A stretch of 22,408 nt of DNA, from IMG/VR virus record IMGVR_UViG_2869970738_000007. One strand, written 5' to 3'. Below the pieces are notes generated by a model. It worked only from the letters and a program-made list of their open reading frames with translations, was not told the DNA's origin and made no database searches. The translations under genes were made by a program, and so were the position numbers. The stretch comes from a virus. Lineage: Duplodnaviria > Heunggongvirae > Uroviricota > Caudoviricetes. Of the stretch, positions 18,692 to 22,408 are shown piece after piece; the stretch's first letter is position 1; each line of letters begins with the position of its first letter.

Positions 18692-18892
18692 ATGTCATCG
18701 AAAAACCGTACCCGCAGAACCACAACCCGCAATATCCGTTTCCCCAATCACATGATTGAACAGATCAACATCGCCCTTGAGCATAAAGGGTCCGGTAACT
18801 TTTCAGCGTGGGTTATTGAAGCCTGCAGGAGAAGGCTGGCAACAGATGCAACGCATCTGCGCCCGGCCAGCATGACAAATAACGAGAAATGA
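18692..18892 (+). CDS. Small phage protein, YlcI/YnfO-like (DUF3950-type, family recalled from memory)
   Basis: ATG at 18692 with AAGGAAA upstream; 66-aa translation MSSKNRTRRTTTRNIRFPNHMIEQINIALEHKGSGNFSAWVIEACRRRL.... Divergent from the HNH gene with only 41 bp between the two starts. Confidence 0.5.
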   Translation: MSSKNRTRRTTTRNIRFPNHMIEQINIALEHKGSGNFSAWVIEACRRRLATDATHLRPASMTNNEK

Positions 18893-19023
18893 ACGTTCGG
18901 TTACAGGAGCAGGTACCCACTGTCCTCCAACAATATTTCATCTTCATATCCGACGGAACAAGACTTACCCTGCCGGGATGTACAGAATAACAACAGAGTG
19001 ATAATTAATTTCTGATGAAATAA

Positions 19024-19350
19024 TCAGGGTGCGGAAGGACTAAAGATAAACGTTTTCTTCACGCCTTTACACGGCCTGTCCTTCTCAAATCGCCATTTTG
19101 CCATCGCCTTTACAACCTGCTCATCAAACAGATGGTGCGGCTCTGAACGAATAAACTCAATTCGGGTGACAGTACCATCAGCACCAATATCAAACCTCAC
19201 ATCAACCCGTCCCTTTATATAATTTGCCGCTGCATAGGCCGGATATTGTGGTAATGCCTTAACCAACTGTCGGGGCATATCTGTTTTATGTTGCGTACAG
19301 CCCATAACCAGAGAAGACAACAAAATAATTAACGGAAGATTTCTTTTCAT
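19024..19350 (-). CDS. Prophage-encoded lipoprotein with a TonB C-terminal-like domain
   Basis: ATG at 19350 with GGGGA six nt upstream. Signal peptide and lipobox MKRNLPLIILLSSLVMGC, Thr at +2. Mature part LPQYPAYAAANYIKGRVDVRFDIGADGTVTRIEFIRSEPHHLFDEQVVKAMAKWRFE aligns by eye to the TonB C-terminal domain (YPA..A...G.V.V.FD...DG.V....S.P..F...V..AM..WR.E). Confidence 0.6.
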   Translation of the reverse strand: MKRNLPLIILLSSLVMGCTQHKTDMPRQLVKALPQYPAYAAANYIKGRVDVRFDIGADGTVTRIEFIRSEPHHLFDEQVVKAMAKWRFEKDRPCKGVKKTFIFSPSAP

Positions 19351-19688
19351 TTTCATTCCCCGCACAGATAAAAATAAGTCTTATTCTAACAATGCCGCCC
19401 TGTCGGTCATCAATCCTCTGCTTAATGGCAACGACAATTATCCGACTTAAATCACAAATCAGACACATGACATAACAGGGCTTGCGAGGTAACACATCGT
19501 CCTGTTTCTTCCACCATCGCACCGGACTGGCGACTATGAGGGGACAACGCCGCGCTCCGTTAACGCGGTAAACCCCGGTGTGTATCGTTTTAGATTATCC
19601 CCGCACACTCGCGCAGAGGAGTCTCCCTGTCGGGCTGCGGTCTCTGTTAATGAGGGAATACAGCGACGATACGGCGCATCAGCAAAAC

Positions 19689-20156
19689 TTAGTTCAGGCA
19701 CTGAGTGCGGATATAGTCCTGTGCCCCTTCCAGCTGCTTCTGCATTGTCATCAACCGTTCTCTGAGGATGAAATAATCCCGTTCAGCGGTGTCTGCCAGT
19801 CGGGGGCCGGTTGCATTATCCACGCCGGAGGTGCCGGTGGCTTCACGCACGGTACCGGAGCAGGTGGCGTTGATCCGCAGGCGCTTACGACCAGCGGCAA
19901 CATCAGCACGCAGAGTTTCATTTTCAGCTCTCGCATCGGCTAATTCCCTCGAGTATCTGGCATCAAGTGCAGCGACATCACGCTGGCGTATCTGCATATC
20001 AGTAATTGTCGCGTTCGCCAGCTCCAGCTCACTGGCTTTTTTATCGCGCTGCTCTTTGTAGATGATGGCGTGAACACGGTAATGATTCAGCCCCAGACTA
20101 AGCGCACCACAGGCCACCAGCAGGGCAATGATGACCACGCACAAAACACGGTTCAT
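19689..20156 (-). CDS. Rz (i-spanin) lysis protein
   Basis: ATG at 20156; translation MNRVLCVVIIALLVACGALSLGLNHYRVHAIIYKEQRDKKASELELANATITDMQIRQRDVAALDARY... is close to lambda Rz. Confidence 0.9.
   Translation of the reverse strand: MNRVLCVVIIALLVACGALSLGLNHYRVHAIIYKEQRDKKASELELANATITDMQIRQRDVAALDARYSRELADARAENETLRADVAAGRKRLRINATCSGTVREATGTSGVDNATGPRLADTAERDYFILRERLMTMQKQLEGAQDYIRTQCLN
19751..19936 (-). CDS. Rz1 (o-spanin) lipoprotein, embedded in the +1 frame of Rz
   Basis: ATG at 19936; translation MRELKMKLCVLMLPLVVSACGSTPPAPVPCVKPPAPPAWIMQPAPDWQTPLNGIIS is a proline-rich lipoprotein close to lambda Rz1. Confidence 0.85.
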   Translation of the reverse strand: MRELKMKLCVLMLPLVVSACGSTPPAPVPCVKPPAPPAWIMQPAPDWQTPLNGIISSSENG

Positions 20157-20491: not shown

Positions 20492-21025
20492 CTACCTGTC
20501 GATACCCCAGCACGCCAGCGCGCTCTCCTGGTCACGCCGCGATACCTGCCCGTAACAGTTATTTGAGCGGTTCCGACAGTCCCTGCCGCCGTCATATATC
20601 CAGCGACGAATTTCAGCACATGCACCTTTCCGGTCTCCGGCGTTCAGTTTCCGGTAAAACGTTGAGCTGAAACACTTACCGGGGCCAATGTTGTACGGAC
20701 AGAATGACGCGATCCCCGATTTCTGAGGTTCGGTCAGCGGCACTTTGATGTTTTTCTCCACCCATGCCAGCGCCTTATCACGTTCAATGGCGTTAACCTG
20801 GTCGCATTTCTCCTTCGACAACTTCATGCCCGGGACGACAGGTTTACCATCCACCAGAATGGCACCGCGGCAGATGGTCCAGATACCCGCGCCATCACGG
20901 TATGCCGTGGTGTGGTTACCTTCCTTTTCATCCAGAAACTGGTCGAGAATGTCAGGCGCAGGCGCACCAGCGGCAATCAGCGCCAGAACGGCAGCCGACA
21001 GGCCGTATCTGATTTTTGCGTTCAT
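20492..21025 (-). CDS. Phage endolysin, lysozyme type with an N-terminal signal-arrest-release-like segment
   Basis: ATG at 21025; N-terminus MNAKIRYGLSAAVLALIAAGAPAP is Gly/Ala-rich and weakly hydrophobic; lysozyme-like body ...EKEGNHTTAYRDGAGIWTICRGA.... Confidence 0.9.
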   Translation of the reverse strand: MNAKIRYGLSAAVLALIAAGAPAPDILDQFLDEKEGNHTTAYRDGAGIWTICRGAILVDGKPVVPGMKLSKEKCDQVNAIERDKALAWVEKNIKVPLTEPQKSGIASFCPYNIGPGKCFSSTFYRKLNAGDRKGACAEIRRWIYDGGRDCRNRSNNCYGQVSRRDQESALACWGIDR

Positions 21026-21713: not shown

Positions 21714-21775
21714 TGAATTACTCTCCCCGTGCAGCCTTACGACGGTCCTCTCTGATTTTGAAATACAGGTTAGTC

Positions 21776-22077
21776 TGAAGTGGCACACTGAATTTGGCCA
21801 CCTGAACAGAGGTGATATGCTCACCTCAGAACAACACAGGTGCTCCAATGAAAAAAAGAAATTTTAGCGCAGAGTTTAAACGCGAATCCGCTCAACTGGT
21901 TGTTGACCAGAAATACACGGTGGCAGATGCCGCCAAAGCTATGGATGTTGGCCTTTCCACAATGACAAGATGGGTCAAACAACTGCGTGATGAGCGTCAG
22001 GGCAAAACACCAAAAGCCTCTCCGATAACACCAGAACAAATCGAAATACGTAAGCTGAGGAAAAAGCTACAACGCAT
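21776..22077 (+). mobile_element. IS911-like (IS3 family) left-end fragment, truncated by IS1 copy 4
   Basis: Begins TGAAGTGGCACACTGAATTTGGCC at 21776 (IS3-family TG terminus); contains the 5' part of orfA; ends abruptly at the IS1 terminal repeat. Confidence 0.75.
21848..22077 (+). pseudogene. IS911-like transposase OrfA, truncated
   Basis: ATG at 21848; translation [76 protein letters not shown], then reads into IS1. Confidence 0.7.
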
Positions 22078-22408
22078 GGTGATGCTGCCAACTTACTGAT
22101 TTAGTGTATGATGGTGTTTTTGAGGTGCTCCAGTGGCTTCTGTTTCTATCAGCTGTCCCTCCTGTTCAGCTACTGACGGGGTGGTGCGTAACGGCAAAAG
22201 CACTGCCGGACATCAGCGCTATCTCTGCTCTCACTGCCGTAAAACATGGCAACTGCAGTTCACTTACACCGCTTCTCAACCCGGTACGCACCAGAAAATT
22301 ATTGATATGGCCATGAATGGCGTTGGATGCCGGGCAACTGCACGCATTATGGGCGTTAGCCTCAACACGATTTTACGTCACTTAAAAAACTCAGGCCGCA
22401 GTCGGTAA
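22078..22408 (+). mobile_element. IS1 (copy 4), left part only; continues past the window end
   Basis: Terminal repeat GGTGATGCTGCCAACTTACTGAT begins at 22078; internal sequence matches copies 1 and 3. Confidence 0.9.
22133..22408 (+). CDS. insA: IS1 InsA, GTG start
   Basis: Translation (M)[42 protein letters not shown]...; 91 aa, ends at the window edge. Confidence 0.9.

Follow-up and report, generated by a model that had tools for sequence, protein, structure and literature searches.

A phage-borne gene in the stretch of DNA analysed here (the window; 22,408 nucleotides (nt) of IMG/VR virus record IMGVR_UViG_2869970738_000007, Caudoviricetes) encodes a small predicted lipoprotein, the mature part of which is a bona fide and complete TonB C-terminal domain. 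The gene lies at 19024-19350 on the minus strand, between the lysis and packaging genes of a defective lambdoid prophage. An earlier note, made from the letters of the window alone, had proposed that its product competes with TonB for the Ton boxes of outer-membrane receptors. We lean towards the same reading, that of an outer-membrane-tethered competitor of the interaction between TonB and the Ton box, though tentatively and at somewhat short of an even chance. The reading is refined here on three counts: the gene is one of a lipoprotein family, some members of which are chromosomal and probably under the control of Fur; it is very common; and it is already annotated by its domain.

The TonB C-terminal domain

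The open reading frame (ORF; minus strand, 108 amino acids (aa)), the coordinates of which the earlier note had given exactly, begins with the ATG at 19350 and translates as MKRNLPLIILLSSLVMGCTQHKTDMPRQLVKALPQYPAYAAANYIKGRVDVRFDIGADGTVTRIEFIRSEPHHLFDEQVVKAMAKWRFEKDRPCKGVKKTFIFSPSAP; in RefSeq E. coli genomes the same coordinates carry the annotation 'TonB family protein'. The only Pfam matches of the protein are TonB_C and TonB_2, with TonB_C (PF03544) scoring 55.4 bits against a cut-off of 24.6 (E 8.7e-15), and the NCBIfam profile tonB_Cterm (TIGR01352) is matched at 55.2 bits against a cut-off of 27.1. BLASTP aligns residues 26-103 to residues 153-230 of E. coli TonB free of gaps and with 38% identity (E 4e-21), and the solved TonB C-terminal domains 1u07, 2gsk and 2grx were matched by phmmer at ~1e-15. 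The domain is coextensive with TonB 153-230, the span that is ordered in the BtuB:TonB and FhuA:TonB crystals. The full-length TonB equivalogs (NF00808x), on the other hand, were matched at only 49-74 bits against cut-offs of 265-448, the match being limited to profile positions ~152-240; the protein has no N-terminal transmembrane anchor and, within its 108 aa, no proline-rich region.

The AlphaFold2 model used here was built on an alignment of 29 sequences, a run on the single sequence having given a poor result (predicted local distance difference test score, pLDDT, 56). In the model pLDDT is 96-98 over residues 30-100, the ordered domain begins at about residue 28, and the helices (H) and strands (E) are H38-42, E47-55, E61-70, H76-84 and E94-103; the predicted fold is that of the TonB C-terminal domain, two helices on a three-stranded sheet with the last strand at the edge. 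The best Foldseek match is 2gsk_B, the TonB of the BtuB:TonB complex (root mean square deviation (rmsd) 1.1 Å over 79 columns, TMt 0.91), and 2grx_C, the TonB chain of the FhuA:TonB complex, likewise superposes at 1.1 Å. All of the top 11 PDB matches are TonB or FusB C-terminal domains, with an rmsd of 1.1-1.7 Å for the crystal structures, whereas TolA and other members of the fold lie far behind (E > 0.06, against ~1e-7 for the TonB domains). The viral structure library BFVD, searched with the model, returned no significant match. The mature part, which the earlier note had aligned to TonB by eye, is thus assigned to this domain by profiles, by gap-free identity and by the model alike; that note had also named structure prediction as the check to be made and a lack of structural similarity as what would speak against it, and TonB domains head the list of structural matches.

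In the gap-free alignment TonB Y163, P164, F180, F202, W213, Y215 and F230 correspond to Y36, P37, F53, F75, W86, F88 and F103, so that the YP motif and every aromatic position of the core are retained, Y215 being represented by F88. These aromatic residues are important in TonB. Across 19 family and TonB sequences P34, Y36, G47, V49, G59, P71, F75, W86 and P93 are invariant.

Lipoprotein signal and tether

The N-terminus, MKRN-LPLIILLSSLVMG-C18, satisfies a PROSITE PS51257-type lipobox rule, in keeping with the lipoprotein with Thr at +2 that the earlier note had predicted. By the same rule 33 of 37 relatives retain the lipobox Cys, and of the four that fail it two nonetheless have a Cys-containing lipobox-like motif; the +2 residue among relatives is T, S, A or V and never Asp. 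From the '+2 Asp' rule of the E. coli Lol system we infer lipidation at Cys18 and sorting to the outer membrane's inner leaflet. About eight residues separate the lipid-bearing Cys from P26, the first conserved residue of the domain (8-15 in most enterobacterial relatives), and a tether of this length would place the domain at the outer membrane's periplasmic face.

A family of TonB_C lipoproteins in Enterobacterales

A profile-free exhaustive search found proteins of 105-135 aa in Enterobacterales that have the same architecture of lipoprotein signal plus TonB_C and are 32-51% identical. Some are carried by phages: a member follows the holin/lysozyme genes in Klebsiella phage ST13-OXA48phi12.4, and another lies between Rz and a lambda-type terminase in a Rahnella prophage. 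A search of prophage lysis-packaging regions had been suggested in the earlier note, and members do occur there in E. coli, Klebsiella and Rahnella prophages; as the gene takes up the same lysis-terminase junction in prophages with different, unrelated lysis and packaging genes, it appears to have been acquired independently. Other members are chromosomal and have no phage genes nearby, lying beside yagU and lacI in Raoultella, beside araBA in Erwinia and among metabolic genes in Pantoea.

Neighbour-joining placed the E. coli phage alleles with enterobacterial TonB in 0 of 300 bootstraps, and their identity to enterobacterial TonB is 37-41% as against 43-53% to the Klebsiella and Raoultella lipoproteins; an origin by recent truncation of tonB was rejected on these grounds. 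The protein is a complete member of the lipoprotein family and not a broken tonB, although bootstrap support for the lipoprotein clade itself is weak (23%). Its membership of this family makes the older, EDL933-era label 'partial tonB-like' misleading.

Some neighbours of the homologues are recorded here in their own right. A gene for a DUF1440/YagU membrane protein adjoins the Raoultella ornithinolytica homologue (locus L085, 6705-7268), and in Klebsiella phage ST13-OXA48phi12.4 another DUF1440 gene (L003, 1277-1903) is found ~3 kb upstream of the homologue; this proximity in both is possibly a trace of the chromosomal region in which the phage acquired the gene. In a Pantoea-type locus (L100, 1208-2290; ERZ27336808) the TonB_C lipoprotein gene stands beside a phage-type integrase gene, a gene with a pore-forming colicin domain and a likely immunity gene, and its sister locus L101 has the same integrase and TonB_C genes with different cargo.

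Putative regulatory sites

Upstream regions were scanned with the 19-bp Fur consensus, matches being counted out of 19. Of 14 distinct loci from outside E. coli, 8 have a Fur-box-like site of 14-17/19 no more than ~60 nt 5' of the ATG, and for the most part it is the best or only one of its kind in a locus of 8-12 kb (Table 1). The occurrence of such sites before many chromosomal members is a new observation of this analysis, and from them the family looks to be iron-regulated in several genera.

In the window an operator-like element overlaps the -10 region of a weak candidate promoter (Table 1). This -10 region is shared by 80 E. coli copies and in part by phage 21. In most E. coli alleles (80 IMG/VR loci, L004-L083) the element is a perfect 8-1-8 palindrome, AGAATAAG-A-CTTATTCT, of which the window copy has one mismatch (TTATTTT), and it looks like an operator for a dimeric regulator. 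The likeness of the window element to a Fur box gains weight only because its position matches that of the stronger sites of the homologues, and for the E. coli phage copies Fur control is only suggestive.

Proposed function

On the reading we favour, the lipoprotein would be suspended from the outer membrane's inner leaflet, with its TonB domain at the level where the Ton boxes of the transporters emerge. It could not transduce energy, as it lacks a transmembrane helix, a proline-rich rod and any link to ExbB/ExbD, and since the part that holds Ton boxes is complete and the part that transmits energy is missing, its most likely activity would be occupancy. The Ton boxes of receptors, or of group B colicins threading through them, would be bound by beta-strand augmentation, the mode used by TonB; alternatively, the protein may pair with the C-terminal domain of TonB itself, and either target would leave the receptors uncoupled from TonB. 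In a lysogen, TonB-dependent phages of the T1 and phi80 type would adsorb irreversibly to a lesser extent and group B colicins and microcins would be taken up less, with some penalty for the uptake of siderophores and B12. Expression would probably come from a regulated promoter of the gene's own and not from the late operon alone, and the Fur-box-like sites of the homologues suggest that iron, through Fur, may exert the control.

This is plausible and has experimental precedent. Capture of the Ton box is mainly through backbone hydrogen bonds to the last strand of TonB (PMC6699858; PMC5413942), a mode of binding that would tolerate side-chain change, and TonB is close to the barrel in its complexes with FhuA and BtuB (PMC6699858). 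As summarised in PMC9841981, TonB-dependent iron import is inhibited when the periplasmic domain of TonB is over-expressed (Howard 2001), and colicin killing and phi80 infection are lowered by a Ton-box pentapeptide.

Several points nevertheless weigh against competition with TonB. R158, Q160 and R166 of TonB, which we take to be contacts with the Ton box or the receptor, are replaced by K31, L33 and Y39, and the segment 158-162 is variable across the family. TonB-dependent receptors far outnumber TonB, and a decoy directed at receptors needs high expression. In the consensus scan, promoter-like sites in the region are as many as expected by chance, and no intrinsic terminator was predicted downstream of the gene. 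The Fur-like site of the window is marginal, 2.8% of equal-sized segments of the 22 kb matching its 13/19 (p ~0.03-0.04), and phage 21 is without it, the right half of the palindrome having been lost by a 13-nt deletion. Tethering by the N-terminus at the outer membrane would reverse the side from which a TonB domain is normally held, which puts the steric fit of Ton-box docking in question. A search of PADLOC-DB assigned the protein to no defence family, giving only a chance-level match (E 0.038, 11 bits). Literature on TonB, prophage lipoproteins, exclusion, morons, phage 21, CP-933N and decoys yielded no functional study of the protein, and no report of its binding or phenotype; the earlier note had likewise been aware of no characterised example. 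Chromosomal homologues repressed by Fur would, moreover, be co-induced with the TonB system, probably just when the cell depends most on TonB-dependent uptake, which would be odd for a pure inhibitor; a Fur-induced inhibitor of iron uptake would be paradoxical unless its value lay in shielding derepressed receptors.

Co-induction with TonB and its receptors, implied by the Fur-box-like sites before many chromosomal homologues, speaks instead for an accessory or modulator of TonB-dependent uptake: a docking partner at the outer membrane, induced by iron starvation, which by pairing with the TonB domain, or by a transient hold on Ton boxes, would serve to tune, localise or recycle TonB there, the phage copy being a fitness moron for iron-poor niches. 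TonB C-terminal domains dimerise, the chromosomal copies are stand-alone genes in ordinary metabolic neighbourhoods, and sitABCD, which encodes an iron/manganese ATP-binding cassette (ABC) importer, is present in each of the 7 phage records that have the phage-21-type allele. However, a domain without a link to ExbB/ExbD cannot deliver energy, and we know of no mechanism whereby a TonB domain anchored in the outer membrane helps transport. The linkage to sitABCD was not accepted as functional evidence, as the carriers are closely related and a further 20 sit-bearing phage records are without the gene. The sole experimental precedent for free TonB domains (PMC9841981) is one of inhibition. A modulator is unlikely, if a serious alternative to the competitor proposed above.

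The replacement of the presumed contact residues is also what could be cited for an envelope-structural or virulence-type lipoprotein in which Ton boxes are not involved, a module of the TonB/TolA-type fold that would bind peptidoglycan or protein, serve to tether the outer membrane or change the properties of the surface, and resemble Bor/Iss in effect. The gene occupies the moron site of bor/iss in lambda and phage 21, and it adjoins iss in phage 21 and Nissle 1917. The TonB C-terminal domain reportedly associates with peptidoglycan and with Lpp/OmpA, and some TonB-like proteins are structural. Such a role is nonetheless rather improbable, given that the protein resembles genuine TonB domains (E ~1e-7, rmsd ~1.1 Å) far more than it does TolA or the rest of the fold (E > 0.06), and that the association with Fur boxes points to iron physiology.

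Competition with TonB, our preferred reading, may be taken further, to a natural, phage-spread TonB decoy under Fur-type control. Induced at iron starvation, when derepression of the TonB-dependent receptors would leave the cell at its most vulnerable, such a decoy would capture Ton boxes both on receptors and on incoming group B colicins. The result would be a broad, receptor-independent exclusion of those phages, colicins and microcins that rely on TonB. In this full form the proposal is speculative and unlikely to hold. Were it true, exclusion by mimicking an energy transducer of the host would be a new mechanism, found in roughly a quarter of E. coli genomes or in more of them, and in phage-21-like prophages (ST131, Nissle 1917) the cost of the decoy would be offset by the TonB-independent SitABCD importer on the same element. 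A decoy of any kind would mean that one very common prophage gene modulates three processes of clinical relevance together, namely the uptake of siderophores and of siderophore antibiotics (Trojan horses of the cefiderocol type), the lethal action of colicins and microcins, and infection with phages that depend on TonB; TonB mimicry would join the mechanisms of superinfection exclusion, and the protein would be a natural reagent for the interaction between TonB and the Ton box. Even if the direction of the effect differs, the family looks like an unstudied part of the iron-starvation response of Enterobacterales.

Comparison with known systems

The prophage protein shares family, fold and YP motif with the C-terminal domain of E. 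coli TonB (TonB 153-239; 1U07, 2GSK chain B, 2GRX chain C), but where TonB has an N-terminal transmembrane helix, a proline-rich spacer and coupling to ExbB/ExbD it has a lipoprotein signal, and it is without the last ~5-8 residues of TonB. FusB of Pectobacterium and HasB of Serratia are TonB_C domains that have diverged for particular partners, and FusB (7zc8) is among the top structural matches (E 2e-6); both, however, are inner-membrane transducers energised by ExbBD, whereas the prophage protein is a stand-alone lipoprotein domain. Closest in proposed behaviour are the engineered periplasmic TonB fragments of Howard, Herrmann, Stratilo & Braun 2001, which, as summarised in PMC9841981, are likewise TonB domains freed of the energy-coupling N-terminus. 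Those fragments are soluble laboratory products that were over-expressed, whereas the prophage protein is natural, under selection, predicted to be lipid-anchored and found on both phages and chromosomes.

The predicted outcome is akin to that of Cor (phi80, N15, HK022) and Llp (T5), small outer-membrane lipoproteins of phages which act on the TonB-dependent transporter FhuA from the periplasmic side and exclude phages, but neither their sequence nor their fold is shared by the prophage protein with its TonB_C fold (the Llp/Cor fold having been compared by description). Bor and Iss are also encoded by small lipoprotein genes at the lambdoid lysis-packaging junction. However, they have no similarity to the protein in sequence or domain, and bor/iss are transcribed against the late operon whereas the TonB-like gene is transcribed along it.

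Distribution, alleles and selection

The window-type allele is present in 417 of 5426 complete E. coli genomes (~8%), where it is always annotated 'TonB family protein', and the exact window protein occurs on at least 1000 contigs. Classical phage 21 carries a 71%-identical allele just before cos, annotated 'TonB C-terminal domain protein', and alleles of this type are found in 1225 of the 5426 genomes (~23%), including those of sequence type 131 (ST131) and Nissle 1917 and those with Shiga toxin 1 (Stx1) phages; in Nissle 1917 the prophage concerned is integrated at icd and the allele adjoins iss. As a sequence, therefore, the gene is neither rare nor unannotated, with hundreds of genomes bearing the label 'TonB family protein'. 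The sitABCD genes of phage 21 lie in its b region (L096, OL657228 21967-24502).

The ratio of nonsynonymous to synonymous substitutions (dN/dS) between the window and phage 21 alleles is 0.11, dS being saturated at ~1.6, and the gene is under strong purifying selection. All 80 copies retrieved from IMG/VR are intact, and across genera the lipobox and the domain persist even where identity is as low as 32-45%. This argues against the gene being a non-functional remnant, the decaying fragment of a captured gene, as might be supposed from the bounding of the prophage by insertion sequence (IS) elements, from the older annotation as a partial tonB and from the circulation of frameshifted phage-21-type versions; a complete domain with a signal peptide of its own is no fragment, and we regard decay as very improbable. 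The frameshifted variants (P0010, P0012, P0013, P0016, P0018, P0019 and P0021) diverge around codons 86-104 and lose or alter the last strand, one cluster having 130 member sequences; they could reflect recurrent inactivation or a slippery site.

Prophage setting and moron status

The gene is a real moron, as the earlier note had supposed. In a BLASTN comparison with the Stx1a phage LC567819, homology at 91-92% nt identity runs from 20159 to 19500 and again from 18846 to 17400, and between the two the 653 bp of the window (18847-19499) take the place of 246 bp of unrelated sequence. The G+C content across 18800-19550 is 43-46%, below the 52-57% of the flanks. Among close sit-carrying, lambda-like relatives of phage 21, 1H12 and similar phages are without the TonB-like gene.

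Along the lambdoid prophage remnant the lysozyme gene (20492-21025) is followed by Rz, a 340-bp spacer and the TonB-like gene, past which lie an oppositely oriented YlcI/YnfO (DUF3950) gene and then the genes for an HNH endonuclease, the small and large terminase subunits and the head. Position next to the lysis genes raises the question of a spanin-like lysis protein, one that would assist or replace Rz/Rz1 when the lytic cycle ends. In four phage lineages the gene does follow the lysis cassette directly on its 3' side and is on the late-gene strand, and its best PHROG match, over the full length, is phrog_1267 (E 1.7e-42), which is labelled 'Rz-like spanin'. However, just upstream the window has both a complete Rz (168 bits) and, embedded in it, Rz1 (76 bits), on which ground this role was rejected. 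A folded TonB_C domain ending in SPSAP is, furthermore, neither a short proline-rich outer-membrane spanin (o-spanin) nor a unimolecular spanin (u-spanin) with a C-terminal membrane helix, and the gene is a separate one 340 bp 3' of Rz, neither embedded in nor overlapping the gene of the inner-membrane spanin (i-spanin). In phage 21 it is parted from the lysis genes by the oppositely oriented bor/iss gene, and the chromosomal homologues have no phage context at all. A non-coding-looking ORF of VT2-Sakai (NC_000902, VT2-Sap50) bears the same label, suggesting annotation by position. A part in lysis is hardly credible, and the label of PHROG 1267 is probably wrong, having apparently arisen from the position next to Rz, and spreads into phage annotations.

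The prophage is defective, the holin gene, the link to the late promoter and the tail genes having been lost to IS elements while the TonB-like ORF is still intact. At one end (21776-22408, plus strand) an IS3-family element (orfA 21812-22099) cuts the holin gene short at 21775/21776, severs the lysis cassette from holin and late promoter and is in turn interrupted by an IS1 (insA 22133-22408); at the other end an IS1 at 7845-8541 adjoins the prophage at the tail-tube gene, with the tail module deleted. An intact ORF under purifying selection in a prophage so damaged fits a function in the lysogen.

Between Rz and the TonB-like gene lies a conserved non-coding block which is not part of the moron (Table 1). 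This ~180-nt block after the Rz stop codon is 77-97% conserved at the nt level in 398 lambdoid phage records, most of them without the TonB-like ORF, which was found in only 15 phage records; it was rejected as a gene-specific regulatory leader for this reason and belongs to the phage backbone. In phage 21 the block precedes the TonB-like gene and does not adjoin Rz, and between the window and phage 21 it is ~84% identical in nt as against ~72% for the adjacent coding sequence. In VT2-Sakai the block is annotated as an 86-aa 'Rz-like spanin', orf48. Rfam gave no match over 18800-19800.

Feature coordinates and minor observations

Table 1. Features of the TonB-like gene and its surroundings in the window, and Fur-box-like sites before homologues (L numbers denote the loci compared)
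Feature	Coordinates	Strand	Evidence or remarks
Coding sequence, 108-aa lipoprotein with TonB C-terminal domain	19024..19350, stop codon included	-	ORF listing, sequence
Signal peptide, predicted; lipobox L-V-M-G-C, Cys18 = 19297-19299, +2 Thr	19297..19350	-	PROSITE-type lipobox rule
Tether, residues 19-25 (TQHKTDM), from the Cys predicted to be lipidated to the domain	19276..19296	-	pLDDT low up to ~residue 20-25
TonB C-terminal domain, residues 26-104 = E. coli TonB 153-231, beta-alpha-beta-beta-alpha-beta	19039..19275	-	Pfam, NCBIfam, BLASTP, PDB sequence matches, AlphaFold2, Foldseek
Shine-Dalgarno GGGGA	19357..19361	-	7-11 nt 5' of ATG; read from sequence
Operator-like element over -10	19367..19385	-	13/19 match to Fur-box consensus; 16 nt 5' of ATG
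Candidate sigma-70 promoter ATGACC-16-TAGAAT, TG extended -10 (weak)	19383..19410	-	Consensus scan, 9/12 matches
Moron cassette: 149 bp upstream, coding sequence, 177 bp downstream	18847..19499	-	Absent from otherwise collinear Stx1a phage
Conserved non-coding block after Rz, not part of moron	19489..19678	-	Present in 398 phage records
Rz i-spanin with embedded Rz1 o-spanin (19751-19936)	19689..20156	-	Pfam Phage_lysis PF03245 168 bits, Rz1 PF06085 76 bits
Fur-box-like site, Pantoea-type L100/L101			17/19 (TATAATGATAATCTTTATC); 10-17 nt 5' of ATG
Fur-box-like site, L091 and L103			16/19; 10-17 nt 5' of ATG
Fur-box-like site, Raoultella ornithinolytica L085			15/19; 10-17 nt 5' of ATG
Fur-box-like site, L084, L102, L107			14/19; 10-17 nt 5' of ATG
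Fur-box-like site, L108			14/19; 45 nt 5' of ATG

The phage 21 allele has AGGA at the place equivalent to the Shine-Dalgarno sequence of the window, and the position of its start codon is the same. Apart from Cys18, which would be lipidated, the sole Cys of the mature protein is Cys94 (window 19069-19071), located in the loop preceding the last strand; this residue is polymorphic between Cys and Arg among near-identical alleles, with Cys in 36 of the 80 IMG/VR copies (~45%).

The left part of the window, 1-8541, is chromosomal and ridden with IS elements. An IS3-family element (547-1820) there divides a porin gene into two parts (1-528 and 1745-2299), and the same left third also holds an IS1 (2353-3050), an HD-domain gene, dcm, vsr, the gene of an EamA transporter and the IS1 at 7845-8541. 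Three IS1 copies within 22 kb suggest a Shigella-like or otherwise IS-rich E. coli genome.

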